From positions 34,667 through 98,666 of IMG/VR virus record IMGVR_UViG_3300045996_000470: a stretch of DNA of 64,000 bases; one strand, written 5' to 3'. The position numbers and the translations under genes are program-made. This DNA is from a virus. Taxonomy: Duplodnaviria; Heunggongvirae; Uroviricota; Caudoviricetes. Shown here piece by piece: positions 37,647 to 58,115 of this stretch (position 1 is its first letter; each line of letters starts with the position of its first letter). Below the pieces are notes generated by a model. That model did not search any database and was not told the origin of the DNA. It saw only the letters and a program-made list of their open reading frames with translations.

Positions 37647-38675
37647 TTAATTGGCATCCTCCGAAACCATCTTAAAGACTCTTGTAACTTCTGGACGAAT
37701 TAACTTCCAGATATTATCTGAATAGTCTTTGCCATCTAACATATGAAAAAGAATAGAAGGATACTTATAGTTTTGATAATGCAAAGCATTAGTCTTTCTA
37801 TCACCCAAGTCAATAAAGAAAATCTTTGCTGTCAATTCTATTTCGTTATACTTCTCTTGCAACTCAGTCCTAACTTCTTCTACGAAATCGTAGAACTCGT
37901 CAGGAGTTCCTTCAAGAAGTTCCTCAAGAGTACCGTTCCTCATTGCTTCCCAAACAGTCTTTTCAGAGACGCCTGTAATCAAACGGTGAAGTCTCTTGTA
38001 CTCCTCTAACTTAATCTTGACACGTTCGCCATTAGAATATCTTAGTACAAACCCCTCAAGATTAGGCTCCTCGTAAGAAAGAATCTCTTCTAAAGAGTCA
38101 AAGGAATAAACCTTTGGAGTACGAAACCCGTACATCTTTGCAAGCTTCTTGTAATAAACAGCAGTAAACTCCTGCCCATGCTGCCAAACAGATAACAATA
38201 CTACGTCAGAGAAGTCGTAATTAACTACGACACGGTTCTCAGGATAAATAACTTCAAAGATAAACGTGTATCCTTCAAGCGGTAAGAAATCTCCAAGCAA
38301 CTCCTTTCCTCTCTTAGCTTGGTCTGATACAAATGAACCACGAGTCGCTGTTACCAACTGTCCCTGATACATCACAGCAACAAGCATAGACCCGTCCATC
38401 TTTTCTTCGACTACGAAATCACCTTCTGGCAACTTGCCATCAAGCTGTTCGTAAGAAAAGAACTTCTTAAAAGGACGAGCAACAATATTCCCCTCACCGT
38501 CAGCTATTAAGCCTCGGCAGTTAAGGGTAACATCATTCCAGACCCAAGCAAACTGAGTGTTAGCAGTGTAGTTGTACACCCACAAGTCTAACTCAGGGTG
38601 CTTCTCACGCTTAACCATCTTGTCTGTCAAGGCTTGGTCTAATGCTTCTTGTGTAAATAAATCAGTTAATTTCAT
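37647..38675 (-). CDS. ATP-dependent RNA ligase (Rnl1-like; nucleotidyltransferase motif I KMDGS)
   Basis: 342 aa; motif I VVEEKMDGSMLVAV (compare T4 Rnl1 KEDGSL); size and context fit an RNA ligase rather than the DNA ligase, which is found elsewhere. Confidence 0.45.
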   Translation of the reverse strand: MKLTDLFTQEALDQALTDKMVKREKHPELDLWVYNYTANTQFAWVWNDVTLNCRGLIADGEGNIVARPFKKFFSYEQLDGKLPEGDFVVEEKMDGSMLVAVMYQGQLVTATRGSFVSDQAKRGKELLGDFLPLEGYTFIFEVIYPENRVVVNYDFSDVVLLSVWQHGQEFTAVYYKKLAKMYGFRTPKVYSFDSLEEILSYEEPNLEGFVLRYSNGERVKIKLEEYKRLHRLITGVSEKTVWEAMRNGTLEELLEGTPDEFYDFVEEVRTELQEKYNEIELTAKIFFIDLGDRKTNALHYQNYKYPSILFHMLDGKDYSDNIWKLIRPEVTRVFKMVSEDAN

Positions 38676-38863
38676 TAGTTTTTAGGATAAAACTTTTCAG
38701 TGAATCCTTGCCCTTTAAATACGGGAGGAGAGGTTTTTGAATAAGCCCTCTCTGCTTTGTTCCCACACGACTCACACACTGCTTCGTCGTCCCTCTTATC
38801 TATCCTACGAATTTCTTCAAAGGATTCGTCACACCTCTTACAGTAGAACTCATACATCGGCAT
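38675..38863 (-). CDS. FmdB-family zinc-ribbon protein
   Basis: 62 aa; MPMYEFYCKRCDESFE...CESCGNK. Confidence 0.5.
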   Translation of the reverse strand: MPMYEFYCKRCDESFEEIRRIDKRDDEAVCESCGNKAERAYSKTSPPVFKGQGFTEKFYPKN

Positions 38864-38865
38864 AA

Positions 38866-39204
38866 TTAATAACAGTCCGGTACACTAATATGGAAGTGAG
38901 GGGCAGTCCAGACCTTTTGCCCTCTAGGACGCTTCCTTTCGTCCACTACTATGTAACCCCACTTTGTTAAAACCTCTGTTAACATCGCCATATGAAAGGT
39001 TGTCCTTCCCTTGACGCTTACGTCTATAGCTTTTCCTCGGTAATGCTTGCTTCGAGCGTTATGAGGTCCCCCCATTTCGGAACTGACTCTCCATCCCATT
39101 TTCACTACTATGTCTTTTAAATCTTTGTAGTTAGTCTGACAAACCTGTGAGAAACCGTTCCCACAAAAACAAATAAGTAATACGAAAATTACGATAACTT
39201 TCAT
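38866..39204 (-). CDS. peptidase M15-type peptidoglycan hydrolase with signal peptide (endolysin candidate)
   Basis: 112 aa; signal peptide MKVIVIFVLLICFCGNGFSQ; zinc-binding motif SKHYRGKAIDV (SxHxxGxAxD) and a downstream HFHI, as in L-Ala-D-Glu peptidases / VanY-like M15. Confidence 0.55.
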   Translation of the reverse strand: MKVIVIFVLLICFCGNGFSQVCQTNYKDLKDIVVKMGWRVSSEMGGPHNARSKHYRGKAIDVSVKGRTTFHMAMLTEVLTKWGYIVVDERKRPRGQKVWTAPHFHISVPDCY

Positions 39205-39211
39205 ACTACTT

Positions 39212-39239
39212 ATTATACAAACTTTTGGATAATTGTCAA
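39212..39239 (-). promoter_or_regulatory. leaderless sigma70-type promoter (copy 4)
   Basis: - strand TTGACA, 16 nt, TATAAT, 7 nt, ATG (39204). Confidence 0.55.
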
Positions 39240-39243
39240 GGGG

Positions 39244-39738
39244 CTACGTTTTTGGGGTGTCTATCCAGCCTAAAGTGTAAAATGGGGGATTCTTCTTAAG
39301 TCCTTCTGCTTCCATACAGAGGTCTCGCATCCACTTACTCCACTTCTCTGCATCCTCACCTTCTATCGAGCGTATAATGACCTTGCCCTCGTCGTCTTTA
39401 AGTTCTATCTCTAAACGACTTACTTGGACAGGGTACTTAACAATCTCGTCGGTAATCCTTTCTATGGCTTCTTGTTTAGCTTCTTCTTTTTTCTTTGTGG
39501 GAGGAACTTCTAGAATTTCCGTAAGTCTACGTGCTTCAATGTTTACAAGCCTGTTTTCAGGGTAGAGGACACGCACCCAACCGTCAGGGAGTATTTCGTC
39601 TAGCTTGACTTCTACTTCTCTGTTACCGTCAATAATATATCTAGCGCCAATCTTTTCTTGCGTAATTGTTTTCATAGGATTTTTAGAATCTCTATCGTTG
39701 CTGTTATTATTATAGTACGGGAACATTGGCATTGTCAA
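39244..39738 (-). CDS. hypothetical protein
   Basis: 164 aa; no recognised motif. Confidence 0.35.
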   Translation of the reverse strand: MTMPMFPYYNNNSNDRDSKNPMKTITQEKIGARYIIDGNREVEVKLDEILPDGWVRVLYPENRLVNIEARRLTEILEVPPTKKKEEAKQEAIERITDEIVKYPVQVSRLEIELKDDEGKVIIRSIEGEDAEKWSKWMRDLCMEAEGLKKNPPFYTLGWIDTPKT

Positions 39739-39950
39739 ACTCCTTCGATGTCTGTTACTTGTCTAAAGCCTCGACTTATCCTCACTAATCCAAAACAAAT
39801 TAACGCCATTGCCAGCCTAGAGAACCATTTCCAGTTGTCCCCTGTACCAAACTCTGTAAACATATAAATGCTTCCCGAAATGAAAAACAAAAAAGCATTT
39901 ACAATCAATATGGCTTCGAGAGCGTAATCAAAATCTCTAGATTTTGTCAT
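39735..39950 (-). CDS. small membrane protein
   Basis: 71 aa; two hydrophobic helices. Confidence 0.35.
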   Translation of the reverse strand: MTKSRDFDYALEAILIVNAFLFFISGSIYMFTEFGTGDNWKWFSRLAMALICFGLVRISRGFRQVTDIEGV

Positions 39951-40162
39951 TTTAAAATATCCCCTTCTTTATATTTGCAGCCTTCCTCGGAAGCCTGTAC
40001 CCAAATAATTCCCCATCCTTTAGTTTCCGGTTCAACCCTTAGCCAGCAAGATTTTCCATCAGGATTAAAGTGAACTCGTTCTACCTTCACTGGGTATTTG
40101 ATGTACGTATTACAGCCAAAAGAAAACAAACCCAAGAGTAAAATTAACAATATACCTTTCAT
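39947..40162 (-). CDS. small lipoprotein
   Basis: 71 aa; lipobox LFSFG-C. Confidence 0.35.
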   Translation of the reverse strand: MKGILLILLLGLFSFGCNTYIKYPVKVERVHFNPDGKSCWLRVEPETKGWGIIWVQASEEGCKYKEGDILK

Positions 40163-40740
40163 ATCCCCCCGACAGAAGCTAAGGCTGGCTGCGAGACTAT
40201 CGCAACCAACCTCTTATAAACTTCAACCGTAGCTAAAGTATCGTACCTAGCCTCGTGAGCGTTGCCCTCTATTTGAATACCGAAATACTCAATAAGATTT
40301 CCTAAGCTCACTGATTCAACTGGAAGTCGACCATTCAATTGCAAGAATCTTGCAACCAACATAGTGTCAAGCGCCCGATGTGAAACAAAATTATCCAAAG
40401 AACCCTTAGAAATAATCGTGTCAACGATAAAGTCAACATCAAATTGAACGTTTTGTCCAAGAGGAATTAACTTCTCTTCTCCTCGGTTTTTCTCTAAGAA
40501 CTTATACAGAATAGTCTTTGCGTCCTTATAAGGGATAGCCTTCTCAGCTAACTCGATAAGGTTAATCTTGTTGACTGTAAGACCTTGTGGTTGAACCCTA
40601 TAGATTCCATCGTCCGGAATCAAGTTCAAATCCAACTCGTCTATAAGCTTTAAGTCCTTATCCAAGACAGCAAAATAAGCAGTCAATAGAGAAACTTCTT
40701 TCCCTAGACCACCTGATTCAATGTCGAATGCTAAAAACAT
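40159..40740 (-). CDS. DEDDh 3'-5' exonuclease (DnaQ/oligoribonuclease-like)
   Basis: 193 aa; FDIESGG (Exo I), NVQFDVDFI (Exo II), NAHEARYDTLAT (Exo III with His). Confidence 0.6.
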   Translation of the reverse strand: MFLAFDIESGGLGKEVSLLTAYFAVLDKDLKLIDELDLNLIPDDGIYRVQPQGLTVNKINLIELAEKAIPYKDAKTILYKFLEKNRGEEKLIPLGQNVQFDVDFIVDTIISKGSLDNFVSHRALDTMLVARFLQLNGRLPVESVSLGNLIEYFGIQIEGNAHEARYDTLATVEVYKRLVAIVSQPALASVGGI

Positions 40741-40749
40741 TATTTCTCC

Positions 40750-41052
40750 TTAAGCTGTTGCCTGTTTACTTTCTTCCTTCGGCTCTTCCTTTTTTACCGC
40801 AGGAAGTTTATCATCTATATCAAAATCAAAAGGATTCATCATCCCTGTATTGTCGTACCTTACGTACCTTTTAATTGCAACCTCAGGAAGAATGTAAGAT
40901 TCTCCTGTAGTCACAACCCACGCTCGGTCTTTCCAAACACCAATTTTTACTCCTAACTGCTCGCTCATTGCGATGGCAATAGGACAAAGCATTTCGCATC
41001 CTTTACCACCAAAACCTCTGTCAATATGCCTTTGATAAACATTAATTCTCAT
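40750..41052 (-). CDS. hypothetical protein
   Basis: 100 aa. Confidence 0.35.
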   Translation of the reverse strand: MRINVYQRHIDRGFGGKGCEMLCPIAIAMSEQLGVKIGVWKDRAWVVTTGESYILPEVAIKRYVRYDNTGMMNPFDFDIDDKLPAVKKEEPKEESKQATA

Positions 41053-41058
41053 ATTGTT

Positions 41059-41086
41059 ATTATACTTGATTTTGTCTGATTGTCAA
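41059..41086 (-). promoter_or_regulatory. leaderless sigma70-type promoter (copy 5)
   Basis: - strand TTGACA, 16 nt, TATAAT, 6 nt, ATG (41052). Confidence 0.55.
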
Positions 41087-41090
41087 GGGG

Positions 41091-41531
41091 TTAAAACCCG
41101 TACACACTCTCTATATCAAATACGATTCCTCGACAGAAAGGCTCTCCCTCTTCTAACATAGTAAACGTGGCATGGGGTATAGCTGTAACATAACTCCACG
41201 GTATGTCATCTACGTCCCACAAAGCTACGACTTCTGAGGCGCCCGAATCTTTTCTTCTAAAGTAGGCGCGAACCTCGTCCTCGTTCTCTTTCTCTAAGGT
41301 ATCCCAATCCGGTATGATTCCTTCCTTATCAAATTTGACTGTAGTACGTTCTCCTACATTAGTTTCGTCGTAGATAGCCCCGTCAAACTCGATTATATCG
41401 TCGCCATATCCGTAGACAATAACTAGCCCGTTTTCTCTTGCTGTATCTATGGCGACTTGGGGCATTCCTAAGTTTACATCCATGCCCTCTAACACTTCAG
41501 CCATAGCTTCTTTAGTTATTTCTTTATACAT
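41091..41531 (-). CDS. hypothetical acidic protein
   Basis: 146 aa. Confidence 0.35.
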   Translation of the reverse strand: MYKEITKEAMAEVLEGMDVNLGMPQVAIDTARENGLVIVYGYGDDIIEFDGAIYDETNVGERTTVKFDKEGIIPDWDTLEKENEDEVRAYFRRKDSGASEVVALWDVDDIPWSYVTAIPHATFTMLEEGEPFCRGIVFDIESVYGF

Positions 41532-41811
41532 CCAAAGTCCCTGCCTTTCTAGATACTTCTAAGAAATGCTTTATCTTTTCCTTTTTAGCCTCAACCTTTT
41601 CCATATCAACGCCAATAGGAATACCCTCCTCTTGCAACATTTCTATTATCCCATACAAGTCGCTAAGTTCATTGTTGATGATTTCTAGATTAAGTAGTCC
41701 AGATTTAGGTTGTGTGTTAGTTAATCCAAAGCGCTTAGTTTTAGACATAGCTTGGATTAATTCTGCACATTCTTCCTGTGCGATTGTCCAAAGATGTTCT
41801 CGTCTATTCAT
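41524..41811 (-). CDS. MazG-like nucleotide pyrophosphohydrolase (all-alpha NTP-PPase)
   Basis: 95 aa; WTIAQEECAELIQAMSK ... ELSDLYGIIEML pattern of MazG-type EExxE/EL helices. Confidence 0.45.
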   Translation of the reverse strand: MNRREHLWTIAQEECAELIQAMSKTKRFGLTNTQPKSGLLNLEIINNELSDLYGIIEMLQEEGIPIGVDMEKVEAKKEKIKHFLEVSRKAGTLDV

Positions 41812-42037
41812 TGTGTATATACCCCAGTGTATGGTGCGGAGCTAAATAGTTGTACTCTAGTACCCATTTCAATCCCAATATTTCAATCATAGATTCAATA
41901 CAAATTGTTTTATATCTATCTCTTACCTTTTCGTAATCCTTGTGTTCCGGATTCAACTTTTGTAAGACAGTAAAGGCATTGTTCCACGTACTGTTTAACC
42001 TATCTATTCTATCTTTTATTTGTTCTTCATTTTTCAT
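41804..42037 (-). CDS. hypothetical protein
   Basis: 77 aa. Confidence 0.3.
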   Translation of the reverse strand: MKNEEQIKDRIDRLNSTWNNAFTVLQKLNPEHKDYEKVRDRYKTICIESMIEILGLKWVLEYNYLAPHHTLGYIHNE

Positions 42038-42555
42038 GGAAGTAAAATGTTTTTAATCATTTGAATGCCAGTATCCAAGTCCTGCGCCTCCCACCCGACA
42101 CTTTGCGTAATCAGTCCGTGGCGATGGATGTTGCCGTCATTAGTAACTAGTACGCAAGGTTTTCGATAGGCATAGCCCCAAGCAACTTCCATTACTGTAC
42201 CGATAGAGACTCGTTTAACATCTAAAAGATTAAAGAGTATGGCATCAGCCGTCTGGCAATCCCAGTGGTCACGATTAAGAATTTGTGACAGGGGAGTAAC
42301 TGTTTCTCCTTTATGGTGTTCAGGCATCCCTGCCATAGCGTTAAGATATCCTTTCGCCCTCATAGGGGAATAAGCTGTAATATTACTAGGCTTTATTAGC
42401 TTATTCCCTGTTTGTGGGTGAGTCAAGGCGCTGCCGTCCACATCATAGAGGTGAGTAAAGGCTAATTGCTCTTTGGCATATTCTCTCCAATTAGTTGCGC
42501 CATGAAATGTTTGCCCTGAGATTGGGCCTGCTAAGTAAACTTTATAGTATTTCAT
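42034..42555 (-). CDS. nucleoside 2-deoxyribosyltransferase-like protein
   Basis: 173 aa; KVYLAGPISG near the N-terminus and SIGTVMEVAWGYAYRKPCVLV near the C-terminus match the NDT/DNPH1(Rcl) family signature. Confidence 0.6.
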   Translation of the reverse strand: MKYYKVYLAGPISGQTFHGATNWREYAKEQLAFTHLYDVDGSALTHPQTGNKLIKPSNITAYSPMRAKGYLNAMAGMPEHHKGETVTPLSQILNRDHWDCQTADAILFNLLDVKRVSIGTVMEVAWGYAYRKPCVLVTNDGNIHRHGLITQSVGWEAQDLDTGIQMIKNILLP

Positions 42556-43461: not shown

Positions 43462-43698
43462 CTATGCATAGCCTCTAAAAATAGAGGCTGTTAACCATTG
43501 CAATGCGCTTACTATATCTTCATCGCTTGCAGTTTCTAGCCATTCATCTTCCCAAACCCTTAAGTTTTGGTCTCTGAGAATGCTCCAACGGCTCATTCCT
43601 TTAGGGGGACGAGTAGTTAAACCAAATTCGTCCCGCCAATTTTTAATCCTACCTATGACTATTTCTCTCATATTAAAACTCGTGATAAGGGTTACCAA
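43462..43698 (-). CDS. hypothetical protein
   Basis: 78 aa. Confidence 0.3.
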   Translation of the reverse strand: MVTLITSFNMREIVIGRIKNWRDEFGLTTRPPKGMSRWSILRDQNLRVWEDEWLETASDEDIVSALQWLTASIFRGYA

Positions 43699-44575
43699 AC
43701 TGCATCAGAGGGAGTCCCTCTTCTGCCCACAGTTCCCTACACACCTGAGGTCTATCGTCAACAACAAGGTACACAAGGTATTTGTTCTTAATATGCTCCT
43801 CATAAAGCTCTCTTTTGATAATAGAATCCTTCCTAGAATCCCCTGCTTTTCTCATATACAGGTGGTCGTAAGCAATTCCATGTGCTTTCAACCAATTCTC
43901 GGTAGGAGTTCTACCCAAATCTTCCTTACGGCCTGACAGGCAGATAAGAGTTACGTCCTCTCTGTCAGCGTACATCTTAGCGATATCCACCACCGGCAAG
44001 TTAGGGAGGTCTTCGTGACACCTAGTCTCGTCAAATGGTGAACGCCCGTTCATCAGCGCAAGAGTACCATCAAGGTCAAAAATGACTGCCTTCGGTTTAT
44101 CGCCGTAGTAGTAATTGCAATCTGTGTAAAGCTTCTTCGGAGGAAGAAACTCTGCCTTCTGTTTCATAATAACCTTCTTCCAAAAGTCCTTACCTTCTGG
44201 ACGATTGGCACAACGCTCGATACAAACATCTATCGGAACGTCTGAAAAATCCTTTACCTCAAAATCATACTGCTCCCTGTACTTCGGGAACACAAGCGCC
44301 TTCACATTCTTTATGTGAAGCTTGTTGAGATTCGTGTCAGCTACGATAACTGACTGTCCCTTCTCAAGAGCCTTCATAATAAGTTCGTTACGCTTCTCAA
44401 CAACTTTAGATTCCTTCACTCTCTTTTCGTTGTCGCCAACAACAGCACCCATTGATGCACGAATATCATCCTTGCATACGATTACTGTGTTAGGATTAGC
44501 AGACACGTACTCATTAGCCCAAGTAGTTTTGCCTGAGCCTGAAAGTCCGTATGTCATTATCACCTTATTCTTCAT
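43673..44575 (-). CDS. pnk: polynucleotide kinase-phosphatase (T4 Pnk-like: 5'-kinase + 3'-phosphatase)
   Basis: 300 aa (T4 Pnkp is 301 aa); N-terminal P-loop GLSGSGKTTWANEY; C-terminal HAD phosphatase motif I VIFDLDGTLA plus a downstream DDR. Confidence 0.8.
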   Translation of the reverse strand: MKNKVIMTYGLSGSGKTTWANEYVSANPNTVIVCKDDIRASMGAVVGDNEKRVKESKVVEKRNELIMKALEKGQSVIVADTNLNKLHIKNVKALVFPKYREQYDFEVKDFSDVPIDVCIERCANRPEGKDFWKKVIMKQKAEFLPPKKLYTDCNYYYGDKPKAVIFDLDGTLALMNGRSPFDETRCHEDLPNLPVVDIAKMYADREDVTLICLSGRKEDLGRTPTENWLKAHGIAYDHLYMRKAGDSRKDSIIKRELYEEHIKNKYLVYLVVDDRPQVCRELWAEEGLPLMQFGNPYHEF

Positions 44576-46694: not shown

Positions 46695-47029
46695 ATTATT
46701 TTTAGTCCCTGCAAAAAATGGTAAATTTGTTGGTCTCCTCCGAGCGTTATTCCCACTCTTTCTATCCTTCTTATATCCCTTTCAAAAGCATCCTTTATAC
46801 CTTCTAGCGCCGTCAGTGCTGCCTTGGCTGCTTCTACATAATTAGCATACAAAGAAAATTCTATGTCTAAAGGGTTCAAAATTCTCTTTTTAAAACCAAA
46901 GCGGGGTTTAAAACAGTACAATTTTCTATGATGAACCTTGCGCATAAAATAAAGTCTTTCCACAGTTCCTGAGCGGTGAAAGAAATACGCTCTATCTATT
47001 ATCAAGTCTTTTGTATTCACGGTGTCCAA
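46691..47029 (-). CDS. hypothetical protein
   Basis: 112 aa. Confidence 0.3.
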   Translation of the reverse strand: MDTVNTKDLIIDRAYFFHRSGTVERLYFMRKVHHRKLYCFKPRFGFKKRILNPLDIEFSLYANYVEAAKAALTALEGIKDAFERDIRRIERVGITLGGDQQIYHFLQGLKII

Positions 47030-48204
47030 CTAAATACCTCTCTGCCGTGAGCCTTCGTGCCGTTGGCATAAAGTTCCCACAGGTTTTCTTTTACTAACTT
47101 AATGTCCTCAATCCTCCCCAAGTTGTCATAACTTCCTGAGTAATCTAAGACGTAACAATCTTCCTTGTCCTCTGCAATACGTGTGCCTCGTCCTAACATT
47201 TGGTAGTATAAAGCAAGGGAACGAGTCGGACGAATCAAATAGATGCAATCCAACTCTGGAAAGTCAAATCCTGTTGTCAGAACTCCCACGTTAAAGACCA
47301 CTTGAATTTTTCCTGTACGGAATTCTTCTATAATTCTGTCGCGCTCTTTAGTTGGCGTTTTTCCTGACACGCAAGCTGCCTTAGTGATTGTAGTAGCAAG
47401 CCTTTCAGCCTGTGAGACGGAACTACAAAAAACTAAGACAGCCTTGCGATGCTTACGCGCTCCGTTAATACTTACGATTATCTGCTCTTCGTAAGGAGTT
47501 AGGAGTCGTTCAAATTCCTCTAAATTAAAATCTGATGCAGACTTGTTTAAAGGAATATTTGCGTGAGGAACAAACGTCCTGCTGAAATACTTTAGAGGAC
47601 AAAGATATCCTTGGTCTACCAATTCGTGGTTGTTTATATTATAGGAAATCCTGTTCCATAGACGAGGGTTTGTTCTGTTTATTAATTTTAAAAAAGTTCC
47701 GTAGGTAACGATTCCATTGATATTTCCCACTGCTTGGACATTTCTGTATGGTGTAGCCGTTAGCCCAATCATAATTGGGTCTCCTATTGCTTTCAAGAAA
47801 GATGTGAACATTCCCTTCTTATTTTTGGAATTGATTGCGTGTGCTTCATCGCATAATACTAATCCAATGTGGTTAAACAATTCAGGTTTTTTGTAAATAG
47901 ATTGAATAGTGGCAAAATTATACTTCCTTATGTCCTTACGCTTAAATGAAGCAGAGTACACTCCTATTTCGTTTTTAGGTACGTGTGCCTCTAGTTTATT
48001 CATGTTTTGCTGAAGAATTTCTTTTGACGGTTGTAGAATTAAAATTTCTTTTTTTAATTCGTTGGCAATTCCAGACACAACCAAACTTTTTCCAGCCCCT
48101 GTTGGAAGGACTAACAAAGAATTATTATCAAATTTTTTGATACTCCAGATTCCTTTTTCTATCGCCTCTTCTTGATAAGGACGTAGTATTGGTTTAGATT
48201 TCAT
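47017..48204 (-). CDS. SF2 DEAH-box helicase
   Basis: 395 aa; Walker [17 protein letters not shown] in [17 protein letters not shown], and motif [10 protein letters not shown]. Confidence 0.7.
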
Positions 48205-49622: not shown

Positions 49623-49891
49623 ACATCGTCCTCAAATAATTCGTATACTGACCTTCGCACCGGCTCTCCCGTTGTTTCAGGGGTTGCCTTTTCCCAATCT
49701 AAGTAGACCGCTTCTGCATTAGGGTTAGCCGCTAGTCTTAATTCTTCTACCCTTAATTCGTTTAGTTTTTCTTCTTCCTCTCTTTGATAGTCCTGCTCTG
49801 TAATCTCTCTCAAAACTACGATACTGCCCCAAATAGCAAGTCCTGACAGTATTAAAAGTACGACAATTTCTAGCCAATAAGCTTTAGCCAT
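49619..49891 (-). CDS. small membrane protein
   Basis: 90 aa; N-terminal transmembrane helix AYWLEIVVLLILSGLAIWGSIVVL. Confidence 0.3.
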   Translation of the reverse strand: MAKAYWLEIVVLLILSGLAIWGSIVVLREITEQDYQREEEEKLNELRVEELRLAANPNAEAVYLDWEKATPETTGEPVRRSVYELFEDDV

Positions 49892-50537
49892 TACTTTTCC
49901 TCAACTCATTTGGTATCCACTCTTTAGTCCAATGCACATCCGTCTGAACGTGATTAGGTCTAACTGCCTTAGCCAAATTTTTTTGGAAATCGTTGTAGTG
50001 ATAACTCATTACGTTACGAATAACTATTCCTTCGTGTCCGCTTGCTATGATGTGGTTGTAAGTGTGTACAAGGAAGTCTAAGTGTTGCTCATAATCAAAG
50101 AGGACAATTCTAGAGTCAATCTCTACGTGTGTTAATCCTAATTCATAACACATGTGCTGTGTCTGTAGTAAGTCAAGGCATTCGTTCTTATCATTCCAAA
50201 TACTAAAAACATAAAAGAAGCTTTTCAAATCTGTGTAATGAATAGAGTGCTTCGCGTACAGATTCTCCCCACAAATTCTCCATCCTCTAGGAATCAGGTG
50301 CTTAATTCCTGCGTGTATCTGTTTAACTACAGACCTAGAAGGGTGGTGAGTAGAGTCCAACGACCTAGCGTGGATGCCATCACGATACATAGAGGTGTTC
50401 TCTCCATCCATCTTGACAGTAACTGCTACTTGCTTTCCATTGAAACACGATTCATCTTCCATTCTCCTGTCGTCATTTTGCAGACCTAGAGAGAAAGGCA
50501 AGTGATATGTTTTAGGATATTTATGTTGATTTTCCAT
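49884..50537 (-). CDS. small RNA-ligase-family protein (Rnl2-like minimal nucleotidyltransferase; motif I KxDGxN)
   Basis: 217 aa; motif I VTVKMDGENTSMY; WRICGENLYAKHS (motif III-like); SGHEGIVIRNV (motif IV-like); FQKNLAKAVRPNH (motif V-like). Confidence 0.4.
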   Translation of the reverse strand: MENQHKYPKTYHLPFSLGLQNDDRRMEDESCFNGKQVAVTVKMDGENTSMYRDGIHARSLDSTHHPSRSVVKQIHAGIKHLIPRGWRICGENLYAKHSIHYTDLKSFFYVFSIWNDKNECLDLLQTQHMCYELGLTHVEIDSRIVLFDYEQHLDFLVHTYNHIIASGHEGIVIRNVMSYHYNDFQKNLAKAVRPNHVQTDVHWTKEWIPNELRKSNG

Positions 50538-51343: not shown

Positions 51344-51566
51344 CCCTCCATCCCTTTTCCTCAGATTTCTTCAGGACTTTCTCAAAAACCTCTATAGTCT
51401 TAAAGAAATTTCTGTACATCAGAATCTCTGGTTGGTCTTTGCGGGGGTCTACCTTCATTACAGCACCCCCGTTTTTATGTGCAGCCATAGCTACCACGGC
51501 TAAGAGTTGTCCCTTTACCAAGATAGCTATGTCTGTCGTTACTGCTATTGTTTCTTCTTCTGCCAT
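51312..51566 (-). CDS. hypothetical protein
   Basis: 84 aa. Confidence 0.3.
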   Translation of the reverse strand: MAEEETIAVTTDIAILVKGQLLAVVAMAAHKNGGAVMKVDPRKDQPEILMYRNFFKTIEVFEKVLKKSEEKGWRVVHQGAPNYG

Positions 51567-52756
51567 TAATCCTGCCTTACAGCCTTAAACTTAGGATGCC
51601 TAGGGATGCCATACTTTGACCTACCGAAAAATTCAATCGTTGCTTGTTTTCCGATAAGGTTTTTCCTATCATTGTAAAGCGCCATCCCTTTCTCGTGACT
51701 GATTCCTTTACCAAGTCCCGGAGCAAAGGTAGTAATCTCTTTACCGTCTCTGTCCACCGTAGGTTTGTCCAACTTACAAATTACCCTACCCAAACGCCCC
51801 TGCTTGTTCAACTCAAAGTCCACAATTTCAAACTCTGCATCCTCGTACAGCTTACACTTAACCAAAGACCAGCTACGTTTATGTTCATAACCCTTATCCA
51901 GAGTTCTAATCATTAACCCTTCGTGTCCCTGTTCAAGAAACTCGTCAGTCTTTTCGGCAATCTTCTCGTCAGTAGCTTCAATCTCAAAGCTAGGGACAAC
52001 AATAACGTTGTCAGACGCAAACTGTTTAAGAAATTCATAGCGCTCCTTGTAATTCTTATCGCTATACGTGTCGTAAAGGTAGTACTTTACCTTCTTAAGT
52101 TGTTCTTCCTCTTCCGGTGTGCGGCTCTCCCTGCGCAACAGCCCACCCAAGTCGTCAAAGGCAAACTCAGAACTATAAAGTTCTCCATCAAGAGGGACAT
52201 CCCCTGTTAGCCCAAGTCTTTCATAAGACTCTCTAAGTTCCTTCTCTACGTGAGGAAGTGTGCCTGTCCTGTCACCCTTACGAGTATAGATTTGTACTTC
52301 GTCCGGAGTTACCTGAATAGGGGCGCGATAGCCGTCATACTTAGGCTGTACGTGAATAATATCGCCCTTAATCTTCATTTTCTCAAGAGTCTTAGAAGAA
52401 CTCTGCTTGCCTAGCGGGTCATATTTATGAGCCAGCATAGGAGTGAGAATTCCTGACCGGAGAACGCCTTTCTTGGCATCCTTTAAGTCTGTTACATATT
52501 GGTCACGGAGTTTCTTTTCTAACTTCGCTTCTGCTTCGGCAACAGCTTGCGTGTATGGTGTGGTAGCATTGGCTTTACCAATGTTCTTTCCTGCGGTAAC
52601 AGGGGTTGACTCAAGTTTCATCTTCATTCCCAAGACGCCTGACTCCCTGTGGATTATCGCCGGTGCTGTCTGGTTCGTTGGGTCACCTTCTACCCAAATC
52701 GTCCAAATAAGGTCTTGTCCCTTGCTGCTTATTTTGTAGATGCTTGTTTTTTTCAT
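51566..52756 (-). CDS. lig: ATP-dependent DNA ligase
   Basis: 396 aa; motif I VQPKYDGYRAPI (KxDGxR); motif IV-V GHEGLMIRTL ... WSLVKCK. Confidence 0.75.
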   Translation of the reverse strand: MKKTSIYKISSKGQDLIWTIWVEGDPTNQTAPAIIHRESGVLGMKMKLESTPVTAGKNIGKANATTPYTQAVAEAEAKLEKKLRDQYVTDLKDAKKGVLRSGILTPMLAHKYDPLGKQSSSKTLEKMKIKGDIIHVQPKYDGYRAPIQVTPDEVQIYTRKGDRTGTLPHVEKELRESYERLGLTGDVPLDGELYSSEFAFDDLGGLLRRESRTPEEEEQLKKVKYYLYDTYSDKNYKERYEFLKQFASDNVIVVPSFEIEATDEKIAEKTDEFLEQGHEGLMIRTLDKGYEHKRSWSLVKCKLYEDAEFEIVDFELNKQGRLGRVICKLDKPTVDRDGKEITTFAPGLGKGISHEKGMALYNDRKNLIGKQATIEFFGRSKYGIPRHPKFKAVRQD

Positions 52757-52872: not shown

Positions 52873-52880
52873 TCAATTTT

Positions 52881-54008
52881 TTACTTGTTGTAATAAAATC
52901 CAGAATCCTTCGCCCATCGCTTAACTATAGTTCTTTCATTTGGTCGGGCTATCCTATTTGCTAGCCCTCTAACCTGATTTACGTTATTCCCCCTAACTTC
53001 AATGGTTAGCTTTTTATTGTCATTCAGTGTTAATGACCAGATAGAAGATTTTCCAGCTATACATTCATTCTTATAAGACAGTACGCAATGCCGCATTGCG
53101 TTTCCTTCTTTTTGAAGCTCTTTTGCCGACTTTATCTGTGTAAATTTCCACAAATTAACTGTATCATCAGAATTCTTCTGAGAGTACTGCCTATCTTTGA
53201 CTGGAGTCCCTTCCCAATTAGCCTCTCCTATTAGTTTCAAACGTCTTAGGTCTTGGTGCCATTGTTCTACTTTTTTAGTTAGAGATTCAATTGTGTGCCC
53301 CTTGCCAATAATAGTAAAATCTGTATCTTCTCGACGCCTATAAACAATGTAATCGACAATATCATCAAGCTGTTCTTTTGATTTAGGTTCTTGGCGAGCA
53401 AAAAATTTTACTACCTCTCTCCAAAACTCCTCTGTTAAATCAAAAGCATTAATTTTTGTTTTGGAGATTCGTAAAGCTTTTCCTGTGTTATTTGATTCAG
53501 TATAAGCTATAGCGTATACAATTGCCTCGTCTATTGGAATTTCATAGTGACAATTCAAAAATGTGTGACATTCTTTTTTTGTAAATAAAGCCTGCCCGTA
53601 TTCCTTATAAAATGAACCGCCCGTTGCAATACAAATATACCAAAGCCTGTAATCTTCTTTGGTAGCAAATCCATAATCAACAGAAGGAACTGAAGAATGA
53701 TACCACTCTCGCCTCGGTGATGGAGTTTCCCAAGCATTAAACATAAACTCGGGAACAGGGTAAAGATGGAAAACGTGACGGACAAATTCAAAACGCTGTT
53801 TATCTCTATGCTTGCTTCTAGTTTTTAGGATAAAAGAATCCTTATCTCTAATAAAGAATCCCTTGTATTCCTTAAAGTCCTCAGACACATCAGGAACAGG
53901 TTCTGCCAGCTTGGCTTTAACTTCTCTAGTCCGTGCAGCAAAATTCTGTTGGAAATTAGCCTCAGCTTGTGCTAATTCTTCATTTTTTAATTTGGTCGCA
54001 CGCCCCAT
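52881..54008 (-). CDS. hypothetical protein (375 aa) with conserved-looking C-terminal NAMRHCVLSY motif
   Basis: ATG at 54008 lies 6 nt after the -10 of promoter copy 9 (the track starts at a GTG at 54023); no fold recognised. Confidence 0.35.
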   Translation of the reverse strand: MGRATKLKNEELAQAEANFQQNFAARTREVKAKLAEPVPDVSEDFKEYKGFFIRDKDSFILKTRSKHRDKQRFEFVRHVFHLYPVPEFMFNAWETPSPRREWYHSSVPSVDYGFATKEDYRLWYICIATGGSFYKEYGQALFTKKECHTFLNCHYEIPIDEAIVYAIAYTESNNTGKALRISKTKINAFDLTEEFWREVVKFFARQEPKSKEQLDDIVDYIVYRRREDTDFTIIGKGHTIESLTKKVEQWHQDLRRLKLIGEANWEGTPVKDRQYSQKNSDDTVNLWKFTQIKSAKELQKEGNAMRHCVLSYKNECIAGKSSIWSLTLNDNKKLTIEVRGNNVNQVRGLANRIARPNERTIVKRWAKDSGFYYNK

Positions 54009-54014
54009 AAAAGT

Positions 54015-54042
54015 ATGATACACCAGTCCTTGTAAAAGTCAA
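54015..54042 (-). promoter_or_regulatory. leaderless sigma70-type promoter (copy 9)
   Basis: - strand TTGACT, 16 nt, TATCAT, 6 nt, ATG (54008). Confidence 0.5.
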
Positions 54043-54126
54043 GGGGCCCTCTCGCCCCTTCCATTAGAAATTTTTCTAAAATTCGGTTTTTGGGGTTTTG
54101 ACAAGGGCCTATTTTTCGGTTCAAAA

Positions 54127-54489
54127 TTAGTTGCAAGCGAAAATTAGATACTTCTCCGGTGTAGGGTCTCCTCTCCTGTACCAATCAGAAACTGCGTTAA
54201 CTCGCATTATCTGTAAATCCTGTCTTAAGAACATAAACGCTCTAGTGCGAATTCTGTAGTTTTTGCAATCTGCCTCAAAAGACAGAAAAGCAAGCATATT
54301 TCCGTAAGGGTGCATAGCCCAAAAAACCCTTCTGCCATTTTTTAGGACTTGAAGGGAGCTTTTGTCGGAATAGTGGGCAACTCCGTCAATATCTACGAAA
54401 ATGGGCGAATAATCCTCTTTTTGGAGGGATTGTGTAGATACAGCTAAACTGCCGAATAGGAAAAGAGCGATAAGTAGTAATTTCCTCAT
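54127..54489 (-). CDS. secreted protein (signal peptide)
   Basis: 120 aa; MRKLLLIALFLFGSLAVSTQS. Confidence 0.35.
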   Translation of the reverse strand: MRKLLLIALFLFGSLAVSTQSLQKEDYSPIFVDIDGVAHYSDKSSLQVLKNGRRVFWAMHPYGNMLAFLSFEADCKNYRIRTRAFMFLRQDLQIMRVNAVSDWYRRGDPTPEKYLIFACN

Positions 54490-54551
54490 AATTGAGGATT
54501 ATACAATAATTAAAGGATTAAAAGCAAACTACTCTCTATCTGTTAGGAATT

Positions 54552-54956
54552 TTAAGCAATTTCATCATAGTATCTTTCTCCCTCCAAAAGAATAGGCTCG
54601 TCAAAATATGCAAACTCTCTTTCAGGCTCATCAAGAGGTACTCCTAGAGACTTTTTATATCTCTTTCTTTCTGCTGCTTCTTGATAACTATAATTTTCAT
54701 TTCCCACAAAAAGGACTCTACCCACCAAAAACATATAATCGTGCAACTGGTAATCTTCGTAAACCTTGTAAATGGTATAATCGGGGAGAATCACCTGTCT
54801 GTACGTCCGAATGTCATTTTTGTATTTTTCGCCTCTATGGTATAGGTTGTAGGTTCCATTCTTTAAGTGCCAAAGGAATTTATAAAAATCTTCGTCACTA
54901 AGACCGTTTTTTAATCCCTTTCGGTAATATTCAATTTTCGTCGGCAGTTTCGGCAT
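54552..54956 (-). CDS. hypothetical protein
   Basis: 134 aa; Tyr-rich. Confidence 0.3.
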   Translation of the reverse strand: MPKLPTKIEYYRKGLKNGLSDEDFYKFLWHLKNGTYNLYHRGEKYKNDIRTYRQVILPDYTIYKVYEDYQLHDYMFLVGRVLFVGNENYSYQEAAERKRYKKSLGVPLDEPEREFAYFDEPILLEGERYYDEIA

Positions 54957-55320
54957 CTTCTTTTAATAATTCCACTAGGTTCCCGCTGCAAGAGCGCCTT
55001 AGCCCGTTTTCTTCCCATTGAATATCTTTCGGATGTGATTCATATGGATTTTTACAGTGTCGGCACTGATTTCTTCGTTCTTTTTTAACTTTTACCGGAA
55101 AGTCCTCATCAAAAGTTAGTACTGTATTGTTTGATGGATGAGAGCCTACGTGAATGGCATAAAATTCGTAGAAATTTTTGTAAATTCCGAAACTATTGTA
55201 GTCACTTGCCATCCAGTATACAACAACACTTCCATTCCCAAAAATAGAACCCTCTAAAACTTGTCCAGTTCCACTTACACCGCTTTCATCATTATGACGG
55301 GTCATTTGAAACGTCTTCAT
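54931..55320 (-). CDS. hypothetical protein
   Basis: 129 aa. Confidence 0.3.
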   Translation of the reverse strand: MKTFQMTRHNDESGVSGTGQVLEGSIFGNGSVVVYWMASDYNSFGIYKNFYEFYAIHVGSHPSNNTVLTFDEDFPVKVKKERRNQCRHCKNPYESHPKDIQWEENGLRRSCSGNLVELLKEDAETADEN

Positions 55321-55442
55321 TTTCTTCTTCCTCTACCCAATTCACGTAATACCCCAAATTCCAGAAAAACTGCTCTAAGGTCAGTATTACCCTCCCTTGA
55401 GCAGAGAGTGCCGTAACTGTCGGGTCTGTTGGCATTAAGTGC

Positions 55443-56123
55443 TTAGTTAACTTTACGTGCATTGGCATAATGTTTCCAAATCATTAAATCGTATTCCGTA
55501 GGATTCACTCCTATTTTATCACAATGGTCAAGATAAATCTTCTCGTAATGGTCGTACTGCTTTCTAGAAGAAGGAGTATTCTTAGGTGCTTCGTCGTGCC
55601 CTAAATCGTCCCTAATAAATTTCATCAAATGCACATCAAGCATAGCAACCCTAACATATTTTCTCGTCCACGCCAAAAAACAACTAGCAGATTTCCTACC
55701 GATTCCGTGAATCGCCATAAGCTGTGCCATCGAACAACCTCGGAGATTGATTCCAGAATTAGTAACCTCTCTAAATGCCCTAGCCAAGCGAGTTTGACAA
55801 CCAAAGCCGTACGCCTTTAATGCACTTGGTAAATCATTATATTGTCGTACCTCGTAACGGACTGCAACGGCTGGGTCTATTATTCCAAAGTTGTCATATC
55901 TTATAGGGTTATGACGATGATATGCAAATTGTCCGTGTACTCCCGGTCTGTCATACAATTTCACCTTATTGAAAGGGGTACTTCCAGCGCCCTGAAGAAA
56001 CGCGTCCAATTGTCTAGCAGTAGTGGCGGCATTCTTTCCTGCTACGGCAATAAGAAAAAGGATTAATTCCTCTAACTCTTCGTCAGTTCTATTATAATTG
56101 ATTATATTATTAGGGTCTACCAT
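55443..56123 (-). CDS. HhH-GPD superfamily DNA glycosylase
   Basis: 226 aa; helix-hairpin-helix LMAIHGIGRKSASCFLAW followed by the catalytic Asp context VRVAMLDVHL. Confidence 0.5.
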   Translation of the reverse strand: MVDPNNIINYNRTDEELEELILFLIAVAGKNAATTARQLDAFLQGAGSTPFNKVKLYDRPGVHGQFAYHRHNPIRYDNFGIIDPAVAVRYEVRQYNDLPSALKAYGFGCQTRLARAFREVTNSGINLRGCSMAQLMAIHGIGRKSASCFLAWTRKYVRVAMLDVHLMKFIRDDLGHDEAPKNTPSSRKQYDHYEKIYLDHCDKIGVNPTEYDLMIWKHYANARKVN

Positions 56124-56461
56124 ACTTCCCTATGCGTTTGTACAAACTCGTCAAACTTACGGATATTTACGTTAAATGTTCCCCTATTTGTTTGGACAAT
56201 ATGCTCGTCTCCAAACATTGTCACTTTAAAAACTTGGTCAATCTGCTCCATCAACTTAAGGCTGATTAGAAACAGTTTCATTCTCTCAATCAATTTTTGA
56301 TAATTAGACACTATAGGGTAGCTGTAGTAGTTCATATTTTCCTCATTGCACATTTCACAGGGACATGATTGCTTTAATCCTCCAAATTCCACAGTGCAGT
56401 CAGTGTTCCCGTATTTGCATCCGTGTTCTTTACAACAATGTTCTGTGTGAACGTCCTTCAT
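56117..56461 (-). CDS. Cys-rich protein
   Basis: 114 aa; HTEHCCKEHGCKYGNTDC...CPCEMC. Confidence 0.3.
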   Translation of the reverse strand: MKDVHTEHCCKEHGCKYGNTDCTVEFGGLKQSCPCEMCNEENMNYYSYPIVSNYQKLIERMKLFLISLKLMEQIDQVFKVTMFGDEHIVQTNRGTFNVNIRKFDEFVQTHREVW

Positions 56462-56826
56462 CTTAGTCCTTTGGCCCTAGCGTAAGAAAGAAACAAGTTT
56501 AAATATCTTTCCATTTCTGGCTTGTGTTTATCTGAATACACAAACTCGGCACGGTCTATTTCTCCGTGTTGTTTAGAATCTAGCCAATCCTTAACTACAT
56601 CCACTTCTGGAGTCTCAACGACTTTTATACCCATTTTTTGGATAAAATCGTCAGCAGCGTCTCTAGTGTTGTAAATAAAATCAAAAGTATACCCTGACGG
56701 GTCTTCGTCCCCTGTAAGTTCTATAGCCTCGTCACAGAGTTCGTCACAAATTTCTTGGAACTTATCAACTTCTGATTTTATCACATCGAGGCGGTCTTTA
56801 TCTGCTTCGGTTATTTGTTTTTTCAA
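56458..56826 (-). CDS. hypothetical acidic protein
   Basis: 122 aa. Confidence 0.3.
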   Translation of the reverse strand: MKKQITEADKDRLDVIKSEVDKFQEICDELCDEAIELTGDEDPSGYTFDFIYNTRDAADDFIQKMGIKVVETPEVDVVKDWLDSKQHGEIDRAEFVYSDKHKPEMERYLNLFLSYARAKGLR

Positions 56827-57118
56827 GTTTTTGTATCTCCTCCACTTGTTCTTTTGTTTTAAGTTCCTGTAGAGCTAGTATCTTGTCAAGTTTTCGTATC
56901 TCTGCTTCCTGTTCCTCAAGCTTCCTAGCTCTTTCTAAAGCTATTTTATACTCATAAGTATGTGTATAAGCATTCTGTTCGTGCAAACGCTTACCATCCT
57001 CTCTAAATGCTCCCCAAGCATCGTAGAAAGGGGCAGGAATTCCGTTCCCAATAAGATAAGCAAGAGTTATTGCTAACCCAACTATAACTAATCTTTTTCT
57101 GGTAAAGTATTCTCTCAT
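56798..57118 (-). CDS. membrane-anchored coiled-coil protein
   Basis: 106 aa; N-terminal transmembrane helix then EEQEAEIRKLDKILALQELKTKEQVEEIQKLEK. Confidence 0.3.
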   Translation of the reverse strand: MREYFTRKRLVIVGLAITLAYLIGNGIPAPFYDAWGAFREDGKRLHEQNAYTHTYEYKIALERARKLEEQEAEIRKLDKILALQELKTKEQVEEIQKLEKTNNRSR

Positions 57119-57558
57119 ATTTGTGGTTGCGTATAAATCTGTAATTCGTAATCCTGTTGAATCTCTGATACATCATCGAAAAACAAATTATACATGCTGC
57201 CCGGAGGAGTCCAAGATGTGTACGTTCCTACAGGAAGTATACCACCTTTTCTTTCAGGGTCTAGGTGTGGAACAACGAAATGGTATGAACAAGTGTTCGA
57301 AGTAAATTCGTAATCCCCCTGTGCATTTACAGTCTGTGTTGTTCTAGTCATTAGATTAAACTTAATGCTAAATTGTTGGTGCGTTATCTGCACCATATGC
57401 TTATTTATATATTTCTGGCTTTCTTTATCAGCACCCCGTATTTGTCCGTAAAATCTCACCGGCTGTGTTACACAACAAATAGGACATTGGGTATCTTGAG
57501 CAAACGATGCCAAAGTACCCGCTAATATCAGACTAATTGCTAAGATTATTTTTTTCAT
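57115..57558 (-). CDS. secreted protein (signal peptide)
   Basis: 147 aa; MKKIILAISLILAGTLASFAQ. Confidence 0.35.
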   Translation of the reverse strand: MKKIILAISLILAGTLASFAQDTQCPICCVTQPVRFYGQIRGADKESQKYINKHMVQITHQQFSIKFNLMTRTTQTVNAQGDYEFTSNTCSYHFVVPHLDPERKGGILPVGTYTSWTPPGSMYNLFFDDVSEIQQDYELQIYTQPQI

Positions 57559-58115
57559 ATTCTTTTCTTGTGATGGTCAACGACCAAATATTCCTTTTGG
57601 CTTAGAAGTTCTTTAATCCCCTCAAACGAAACAGGGGTATAGTCAAAGTTGTCTACTCCCACATCAATCCTTGTCGTATCCTTGTTAAGATGGTTCACGC
57701 TTCCGTGACAATGCCCGTGAATCATCCAACTTCCCTTGTGCGCTCCGTGCCAAGAGAGAATAGGATAGTGAGCAAGTATTAGGTATTGTCTGTCTATTTT
57801 AATTCTCTTATAGTCTTGGACTGACTCAAAATATTTATAGAGGTATCCGCCTTCTGTATCAAAAACTTCGTCGTGATTTCCTTTAATAAAATGTTTATGT
57901 CCGTTCAGGCGCTTGAGAATATCTTGAGTCGCTACAAAATTCCCAAAAGAAAAATCTCCAAGATGCCAAACTATGTCTTTATCCGTTACAACAGAGTTCC
58001 ACCTTTCCACCATAGCTTCATTCATTTCTTCGACATCCGTAAACGGTCGTCCTGAATAAGAAATTATATTCTTATGGAAATAGTGTGTATCTGATGTAAA
58101 AAACGTTGTACTCAT
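57555..58115 (-). CDS. metallophosphoesterase (calcineurin-like)
   Basis: 186 aa; FTSDTHYFH, HLGDFSF, GNHDE, AHYP..., GHCH metal-ligand motifs. Confidence 0.6.
   Translation of the reverse strand: MSTTFFTSDTHYFHKNIISYSGRPFTDVEEMNEAMVERWNSVVTDKDIVWHLGDFSFGNFVATQDILKRLNGHKHFIKGNHDEVFDTEGGYLYKYFESVQDYKRIKIDRQYLILAHYPILSWHGAHKGSWMIHGHCHGSVNHLNKDTTRIDVGVDNFDYTPVSFEGIKELLSQKEYLVVDHHKKRI

Follow-up and report, generated by a model that had tools for sequence, protein, structure and literature searches.

Does a phage that encodes a polynucleotide kinase-phosphatase together with several RNA ligases possess a kit for RNA repair, and which breaks would such enzymes restore? The question is raised by a 64,000-nt stretch of DNA from a tailed phage (positions 34,667 to 98,666 of IMG/VR record IMGVR_UViG_3300045996_000470, Caudoviricetes; here called the window), in which a first-pass annotation had described an RNA end-healing and sealing toolkit between 37647 and 58115, made up of a T4-like polynucleotide kinase-phosphatase (Pnkp), three RNA ligases and a calcineurin-like phosphoesterase, with a separate DNA ligase. 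The healing and sealing enzymes identified in the window are:

43673-44575, minus strand: T4-type polynucleotide kinase-phosphatase, 300 aa (AAA_33 at residues 5-146, HAD_PNKP at 161-292)
37647-38675, minus strand: Rnl1-family RNA ligase, 342 aa (motif I lysine K92 in KMDGS)
33749-34879, minus strand: Rnl5-family (DraRnl/NgrRnl, DRB0094) RNA ligase, 376 aa (motif I lysine K191 in KLHGTN)
49884-50537, minus strand: ligase consisting of a nucleotidyltransferase (NTase) domain alone, 217 aa (KMDGEN; PF09414)
51566-52756, minus strand: ATP-dependent DNA ligase, 396 aa (KYDGYR; PF01068, 1.6e-19, and DNA_ligase_OB_2; phrog_114, 2.7e-65)

The E-values of the profile hidden Markov models (HMMs) place the ligase and Pnkp matches far beyond chance, and a six-frame motif scan found ligase-type motif I sites in only four ligase-like open reading frames (ORFs), those of the Rnl1, Rnl5-type, 217-aa and DNA ligases. 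When the KxDG proteins described as RNA ligases were checked for being DNA ligases, RNA-ligase models scored far higher than DNA-ligase models, and the KYDGYR protein was confirmed as a distinct DNA ligase, which is a replication enzyme and stands outside the RNA kit. The three RNA ligases had been referred to as paralogs, but show no significant pairwise BLASTP similarity, and thus represent three separate covalent-nucleotidyltransferase families and not recent duplicates.

Kinase-phosphatase and ligases of the Rnl1 and Rnl5 families

The window Pnkp matched the HAD_PNKP (1.2e-41) and phrog_505 (1.3e-77) profiles, and was aligned with T4 Pnkp (1ltq, 6.2e-37, residues 3-292 on 2-295) and, over nearly the full length, with bacterial Pnkp1 (4xrp, 1.6e-39). 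A check for loss of catalytic residues found the P-loop (GLSGSGKTT, residues 10-18), the KDDIR motif (35-39) and the HAD phosphatase motif DLDGT (167-171) all intact, so that its description as a T4-like, 300-aa combination of a P-loop kinase and a DxDGT phosphatase of the HAD type stands. Used as a single query, this Pnkp retrieved no relative from IMG/VR, and its sole matches in a metagenome scan were a pair of distant loci (33% identity).

The KMDGS protein at 37647-38675 had been called Rnl1-like, and its membership of that family was supported by PF09511 (56.4 bits, gathering threshold 28.3, profile positions 1-227), by phrog_562 (5.8e-62, residues 6-335 of 342) and by a HMMER match to the structure of T4 Rnl1 (2c5u, E-value 1e-12), in which the alignment ends at residue 265. 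The CRG and KKFF segments, K92-MDG-S, FE(141), E207-G208 and K220-I-K222 align with T4 residues in the 2c5u alignment. Mutagenesis in the Shuman laboratory reportedly established R54, K75, F77, K99, G102, K119, E159, E227, G228, K240 and K242 as the essential residues of T4 Rnl1; K119 is conservatively replaced by R112 in the window protein, with the other residues of this list being kept. The C-terminal helical domain is the signature of Rnl1 and gives tRNA specificity. The score with the equivalog model of T4 RnlA (TIGR02308) was 62.4 bits, and since this is far under the cut-off of 242.25, the protein is a divergent member of the family and not an equivalog.

The remaining two-domain ligase, reported as an OB-fused (oligonucleotide-binding fold) Rnl2-type enzyme within 37647-58115, proved to be located elsewhere and to belong to another family. 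It lies at 33749-34879 and is assigned to Rnl5, because it passed the curated HMM TIGR02306 (160.8 bits, cut-off 151.15, profile positions 4-339 of 341) and its N-terminal domain aligns with NgrRnl (5cot, 8e-13, residues 20-200), and it failed the Rnl2 model TIGR02307 (29.8 bits, cut-off 197.15). A match to phrog_968 (9e-47) was also found, and we take its motif I, KLHGTN, to correspond to that of T4 Rnl2 and not to the KLDGSS of NgrRnl. As in DraRnl and NgrRnl, an N-terminal OB domain (PF21189, PHA02142 OB, residues 7-108) precedes a C-terminal NTase domain (PF09414, residues 184-359 of 376), and there is no C-terminal appendage, which is the architecture that defines Rnl5 (PMC4408790). The NTase half has diverged too far to match NgrRnl in a single-sequence search, and the C-terminal half found no ligase among PDB sequences. 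According to two reports (PMC5397189, PMC4408790), DraRnl and NgrRnl seal nicks only if the strand with the 3'-OH is RNA, and loss of DraRnl makes Deinococcus sensitive to ionising radiation. The only large ORF within 37647-58115 that could be mistaken for an OB-fused ligase (47017-48204, 395 aa) was rejected, as Pfam identified it as a helicase.

Two further genes related to RNA accompany these enzymes:

29800-31020, minus strand: CCA-adding enzyme (tRNA nucleotidyltransferase), 406 aa (PF01743, 1.6e-17, and PF12627), outside the range first annotated
36783-37169, minus strand: tentative PTH2-like peptidyl-tRNA hydrolase, 128 aa, between the Rnl5 and Rnl1 genes

The CCA-adding enzyme matched phrog_2244 (tRNA nucleotidyltransferase, 1.5e-59), aligns with NF009814 over residues 12-376, and is 58% identical to the copy in L082, one of the syntenic relatives (45-75% protein identity) that were reached via ligase and Pnkp homologs. 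The 128-aa protein is 55-77% identical to proteins of the relatives L082, L086 and L093, and the L082 homolog has a precomputed weak PTH2 match; the window protein scored 17.8 bits with PF01981, under the gathering threshold of 23, and a profile search of PDB sequences with it was negative. Foldseek with a weak single-sequence model (predicted local distance difference test, pLDDT, 56) gave matches with E-values of 0.03-0.16. We take eight of the top nine PDB entries to be members of the PTH2 family, although the label peptidyl-tRNA hydrolase is attached to just two of them, 3erj and 1xty. In jumbo phages, PTH2 has been described as a ribosome-rescue factor (PMC7824862).

We favour, with confidence somewhat above the midpoint, the explanation that these enzymes form an RNA-repair kit. 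Host defences that target RNA, such as anticodon nucleases, would cut tRNA to leave 2',3'-cyclic phosphate and 5'-OH ends, both of which would be healed by Pnkp, with the kinase producing a 5'-phosphate and the HAD phosphatase a 3'-OH. Breaks in single-stranded loops would be sealed by the Rnl1-type ligase, as is done by T4 Rnl1, and nicks in duplex RNA with an RNA 3'-OH strand by the Rnl5-type ligase, while the 217-aa ligase would be a third sealing enzyme acting downstream of polynucleotide kinase. The CCA-adding enzyme would rebuild trimmed tRNA 3' ends, and the PTH2-like protein may release peptidyl-tRNA from stalled ribosomes. What the analysis establishes is the family of each enzyme, the integrity of the catalytic motifs, the ties to polynucleotide kinase by genome position and by fusion, and a presence that varies among relatives; substrates, the time of expression and the defences countered are inferred.

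A family of ligases with the nucleotidyltransferase domain alone

For the 217-aa protein, first described as a small Rnl2-family ligase, the assignment as a KMDGEN ligase of the PF09414 type at 49884-50537 holds, but it is not an Rnl2 in the strict sense, as it matches no NCBIfam model (and so not TIGR02307) and lacks a C-terminal domain. It scored 90.8 bits with PF09414 (1.4e-25) and only 17.8 bits with the DNA-ligase model PF01068, and had no match among PDB sequences. The AlphaFold2 model (pLDDT 92) is a single domain, for which the best Foldseek matches were the NTase domains of NgrRnl (6e-8), archaeal Rnl3 (1e-7) and T4 Rnl2 (6e-6), with a Foldseek probability of 1.00 and DNA ligases ranking behind; on the basis of this model and its structural neighbours, the protein is a natural bare NTase domain. 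The residues K42 (motif I), R58 (Ia), E91 (III), F108 (IIIa), E169-G170 (IV) and K190 and R193 (V) are invariant in 31 homologs, which also share two conserved segments of the family's own, KYPxTxHL at the N-terminus and NHVQTDxHW at the C-terminus. A word-indexed search retrieved 4154 relatives, most of them 205-235 aa long and a few with an N-terminal HNH domain, and an exhaustive profile search yielded 792 clusters at 50% identity (E<=1e-30). Among further homologs of the 217-aa ligase (P0396, P0428, P0440 and P0370), some members are split just after motif I by an intein with a LAGLIDADG endonuclease, and P0370 is fused to the catalytic core of a topoisomerase IB.

Members of this family are linked to polynucleotide kinase by gene fusion and by genome neighbourhood. 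Four of them (P0386, P0404, P0450 and P0435) have a C-terminal AAA_33 kinase domain, which in P0386 weakly resembles (E-value 0.003) the 171-residue chains 4jst, 4gp6 and 4gp7; these carry the label 'Metallophosphoesterase', and are presumably the kinase domain of C. thermocellum Pnkp. Pnkp was found within 10 kb of the small ligase in 16 of 80 IMG/VR loci and, after dereplication at 60% identity, within 2 kb in 5/20 clusters and adjacent (<500 bp) in 3/20, these figures, like the co-occurrence figures for the phosphoesterase below, being raw counts without an external baseline. Pnkp was also the most recurrent neighbour on the same strand (6/55 clusters within 2.5 kb), followed by DNA ligase, with a protein resembling HD-domain phosphohydrolases (by sequence motif) and an HNH protein also recurring; no recurrent small partner gene, encoding an OB-fold or otherwise, adjoined the small ligase in the IMG/VR neighbourhoods. 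The adjacency of Pnkp and the kinase fusions tie the small-ligase family to the healing of 5' ends.

Alternatively, both PF09414 ligases, the Rnl5-type and the small one, may serve DNA replication or repair by sealing junctions of an RNA 3'-OH with 5'-phosphorylated DNA, such as ribonucleotide patches or primer remnants, in which case only Pnkp and Rnl1 would form a tRNA-repair pair. The neighbours of the small ligase in the window and in its relatives (DNA ligase, helicase, endonuclease VII or DnaB) are consistent with such a role, as are the second rank of DNA ligase among its recurrent neighbours, the fusions to HNH and topoisomerase IB (P0370) and the inteins, which are typical of DNA enzymes. 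The need of DraRnl and NgrRnl for RNA on the 3'-OH strand only, and the radiosensitivity of Deinococcus lacking DraRnl, as given in PMC5397189 and PMC4408790, point the same way. However, a complete DNA ligase is already encoded by the phage, RNA ligases rank ahead of DNA ligases among the structural neighbours of the small ligase, and adjacency to Pnkp and fusion to kinases fit a healing-and-sealing pathway, even if DNA ends, too, are substrates of T4-type Pnkp. We regard a role of both ligases in DNA metabolism as unlikely, and prefer the RNA-repair explanation for them.

Essentially bare NTase domains have been obtained from other ligases: in NgrRnl cut back to its NTase, adenylylation and nick sealing as a whole are defective and step 3 alone survives, truncated T4 Rnl2 also remains capable of step 3, and a free-standing NTase has been postulated as the ancestor of ligases (PMC4408790). 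The 217-aa protein shares the bare NTase with these derivatives, T4 Rnl2(1-249) and NgrRnl-deltaN, and with kinetoplastid REL1, which borrows an OB domain in trans, but differs from all three in belonging to a natural free-standing family with its own KYPxTxHL and NHVQTDxHW segments. A characterised or solved member of the family was not found in the literature, coverage of which was incomplete. To our knowledge, no polynucleotide ligase characterised to date is as small as the members of this family. More tentatively, and as a proposal that we rate somewhat below an even balance, this large family (~800 clusters, mostly from phages and also from bacteria) might perform full sealing of RNA or RNA/DNA without an OB or C-terminal domain by means of these two segments, with a polynucleotide kinase as partner in a pathway distinct from those of Rnl1, Rnl2 and Rnl5, and would then in effect add a sixth type to the RNA ligases, one near the postulated ancestral NTase. 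If true, such a self-sufficient minimal ligase would bear on the origin of ligases from a bare NTase domain, and might provide a compact reagent. The family is also a practical lead, being abundant, with motifs that appear intact, and tied to polynucleotide kinase by both adjacency and fusion.

The closest homolog of the small ligase (71% identity) is on L088, a contig that also encodes a cREC_REC domain protein (2903-3274) and a short protein having an RF-1 (peptidyl-tRNA hydrolase) domain (4416-4727). Published work connects both kinds of protein with RNA repair or the rescue of ribosomes.

Known systems, relatives and gene layout

The plus strand of the window, upstream of the genes described so far, holds a virion module with portal, protease, major head protein, major tail protein and two giant ORFs, which shows that the window derives from a tailed phage. 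From its tail module and major tail protein, which look siphovirus-like, the phage appears to be non-T4-like. Neither 16 kb of the window by megablast nor the portal protein by tblastn found a match in a collection of 50,697 phage records, so that no cultured close relative was usable for synteny. The phage is an uncultured, large, tailed member of a very divergent lineage that is not jumbo. Two of its proteins, P0001 and P0241, have exact records on a JGI metagenome contig of 121,203 bp.

Among the closest known systems is the T4 tRNA-repair pathway, in which Pnkp (pseT) and Rnl1 (gp63) reverse the damage done by the anticodon nuclease PrrC. The window shares with it a kinase-HAD Pnkp of the same length and an Rnl1-family ligase, but differs in the 5 kb that separate the two genes, in the divergence of its Rnl1 (62 versus 242 bits), in the non-T4-like appearance of the phage, and in that its host is not known to have a cognate anticodon nuclease. 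The contrast first drawn with T4, as a phage with one RNA ligase, does not hold, since T4 has two, Rnl1 and Rnl2, and the Rnl families divide their labour, with loop breaks sealed by Rnl1 and duplex nicks by Rnl5 (PMC4408790).

The term unusually rich was likewise an overstatement, as similar kits are present in jumbo phages, in Aeromonas phage 25 and in L028, an unrelated viral contig of 207 kb in IMG/VR. Iyer et al. (2021) described several RNA-ligase families, Pnk-HAD, calcineurin-like phosphatases, CCA-adding enzymes and PTH2 in jumbo phages (PMC7824862). The window shares with such jumbo and T4-like multi-ligase kits several RNA-ligase families, Pnk-HAD, a calcineurin-like phosphoesterase, a CCA-adding enzyme and, tentatively, PTH2; it differs from the jumbo-phage kits in its source contig, which at ~121 kb on record is below jumbo size, in the RtcB, RlaP, 2H and cRec domains, which were not detected in the window, and in having no tRNA genes within 64 kb. 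The cultured, T4-like Aeromonas phage 25 (NC_008208) has an Rnl5-type ligase, rnlA, pseT, cd and the DNA ligase gp30 within 12 kb, and in Streptomyces phage LukeCage the Rnl1 and Pnk genes are ~750 bp apart; we count this pairing of Pnkp and Rnl1 in cultured phages in favour of RNA repair. L028 combines Rnl1, Rnl5, small ligase and DNA ligase within 17 kb, with a partial Pnkp match (115/300 residues). Of the 50,697 phage records, 2110 have an Rnl1-like ligase, 279 an Rnl5-like ligase and 33 the small ligase, the last group being mostly jumbo phages.

It is plausible that the phage has several non-redundant ligases for differing RNA damage, an idea that has already been published, as Iyer et al. 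(2021) likewise infer that such ligases are specialised and not redundant (PMC7824862). The ligases of the window may, as first suggested, be specialised against several anticodon nucleases. Our finding is in this respect confirmatory and breaks no new ground, with the small ligase as its freshest element; what it adds are the occurrence of such a kit in a very divergent, non-jumbo phage lineage, and its gain and loss gene by gene among close relatives. Phage RNA-repair kits are of wider interest as they reveal host defences that hit translation, and also supply useful enzymes.

A number of observations weigh against the RNA-repair explanation. The genes are scattered across ~29 kb amid replication genes and many small ORFs of unknown function, so that they are not a single dedicated operon and were probably assembled piecemeal. 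The small ligase always adjoins DNA ligase and helicase in this phage lineage, neither a tRNA scan nor Rfam found a match in the 64-kb window, and the physiological substrates of even the characterised Rnl5 enzymes are unknown (PMC4408790). Furthermore, the relatives carry different subsets of the genes: L086/L087 and L082 have the DNA ligase, small ligase, PTH2-like protein, Rnl5, CCA-adding enzyme and exonuclease, but at the syntenic positions lack both Pnkp and Rnl1; L089/L083 have the small ligase, DNA ligase, Rnl1 and Rnl5, with no Pnkp at the syntenic place; and L093 has the DNA ligase and Pnkp (72% identity), with Rnl1 present only as a 31-aa remnant (19759-19851, 64% identity), which at its syntenic place indicates recent loss. 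No single combination is thus required, and the components have been gained and lost one by one, making the kit a mosaic. In L083 (NCBI JAITZC010000665.1), an IS605-type element with TnpB/OrfB and a Y1 transposase (8075-9673) is located between the Rnl1 and Rnl5 genes.

This variation would be expected if the ligases were a mosaic of horizontally acquired, overlapping and largely redundant accessory genes, their number reflecting gene flux and not one enzyme per defence. The varying presence in relatives of 45-75% identity, with the Rnl1 remnant of L093 and the IS605/TnpB insertion of L083, is in line with gene flux, as are the dispersal of the genes and the descent of the three ligases from unrelated families, by which they were acquired separately. 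On the other hand, none of the three RNA ligases has lost a catalytic motif, the characterised exemplars differ in substrate, Rnl1 sealing loop breaks and Rnl5 duplex nicks (PMC4408790), and the same combinations recur in unrelated phages (L028 and Aeromonas phage 25). Redundancy through gene flux seems to us quite improbable as an account of the ligases, and the RNA-repair explanation is preferred.

Beyond ~28.8 kb, every gene of the window is on the minus strand. As an explanation of the whole we consider it rather probable, if by no means certain, that this array comprises early and replication genes, interspersed with enzymes for the repair of damaged RNA, chiefly the tRNA of the host. Three exact matches to the sigma-70 consensus, all on the coding strand, closely precede the Rnl1 unit:

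39212-39239, minus strand: perfect sigma-70 promoter, TTGACA-N16-TATAAT, two small genes upstream of the Rnl1 gene
39709-39738, minus strand: perfect sigma-70 promoter, exact consensus match
41059-41086, minus strand: perfect sigma-70 promoter, exact consensus match

These TTGACA-N16-18-TATAAT sites fall within 1.9 kb, where 0.05 are expected and 0/100 shuffles reached three. They look like strong early promoters, and suggest that the genes behind them would be transcribed early, by the host polymerase.

Phosphoesterase and other neighbouring genes

The phosphoesterase included in the kit by the first-pass annotation is present as described, with regard to both gene and fold family, and hints of its membership of the RNA kit come from gene neighbourhoods only:

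57555-58115, minus strand: calcineurin-like metallophosphoesterase, 186 aa (PF12850, 28.9 bits, gathering threshold 27; phrog_547, 1.4e-60)
58576-58929, minus strand: dCMP deaminase, two genes upstream of the phosphoesterase

All metal-binding motifs were found in the phosphoesterase (SDTHYFH at residues 8-14, GDFS at 53-56, GNHD at 79-82, H116 and HGHCH at 133-137). Its sole relative among PDB sequences is aq_1665 (1xm7), the function of which is unknown, and the same search showed neither lambda phosphatase nor a chain identifiable as the phosphatase domain of CthPnkp. Clustering of 80 IMG/VR loci at 60% identity gave 28 groups of neighbourhoods, and the phosphoesterase had an RNA-repair gene at <500 bp in four clusters (CCA-adding enzyme in L094, small ligase in L101, Rnl1 in L153 and L173) and within 5 kb in 10, with none within 10 kb in 18 of the 28. 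In L091/L092, Pnkp is directly followed by a phosphoesterase homolog with 38-39% identity.

The link of this enzyme to RNA repair is suggestive, at about an even balance. With roughly equal weight, it may stand outside RNA end healing and act on nucleotides or other phosphoesters, for instance in nucleotide metabolism with the dCMP deaminase or in the breakdown of signalling nucleotides. Its distance of 7 kb from the nearest ligase, the lack of a sequence match to the RNA-end phosphatases named above with a solved relative of unknown function, the 18/28 clusters devoid of an RNA-repair gene within 10 kb and the proximity of the dCMP deaminase argue for such a function, as does the adjacency of deaminase and phosphoesterase in LukeCage, although the two phosphoesterases do not match. 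Healing of RNA ends is favoured instead by the 4/28 clusters with an RNA-repair gene at <500 bp, the partners differing, and the 10/28 at <=5 kb, for which there is no baseline, by the succession of Pnkp and phosphoesterase in L091/L092, and by the proposal that calcineurin-like phosphatases are RNA end-healers in jumbo phages (PMC7824862). In LukeCage the dCMP deaminase gene is immediately followed by that of a metallophosphoesterase, to which the window phosphoesterase had no tblastn match at E<=1e-4.

Further genes in the window are:

31017-31319, minus strand: small Pol-beta nucleotidyltransferase, 100 aa (PF01909, NTP_transf_2, 25.0 bits, gathering threshold 21)
28796-29752, minus strand: DEDD (RNase T/DnaQ-like) exonuclease, adjoining the CCA-adding enzyme
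13014-20474, plus strand: giant ORF of the tail module, 2486 aa
21742-27726, plus strand: giant ORF of the tail module, 1994 aa
12329-13024, plus strand: HNH endonuclease gene, inserted directly ahead of the 2486-aa ORF

Between the stop of the 100-aa nucleotidyltransferase gene and the start of the CCA-enzyme gene there is a 4-nt overlap, and L082 has no homolog at the syntenic place; the protein may extend RNA 3' ends by nucleotide addition, or be a mimic of MNT-type antitoxins. The pairing of the exonuclease with the CCA-adding enzyme is kept in L082, and the exonuclease has an extra N-terminal domain of ~140 aa with a weak match to YAcAr SLOG (E-value 0.008). The 2486-aa ORF (13014-20474) is possibly an exceptionally long tape-measure protein. 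Finally, a 129-aa protein (54931-55320, minus strand) had no Pfam match itself, and is 59% identical to a protein of L086/L087 with a precomputed match to Acb5 (PF26761), by which it may be a factor against the cyclic-oligonucleotide-based antiphage signalling system (CBASS).

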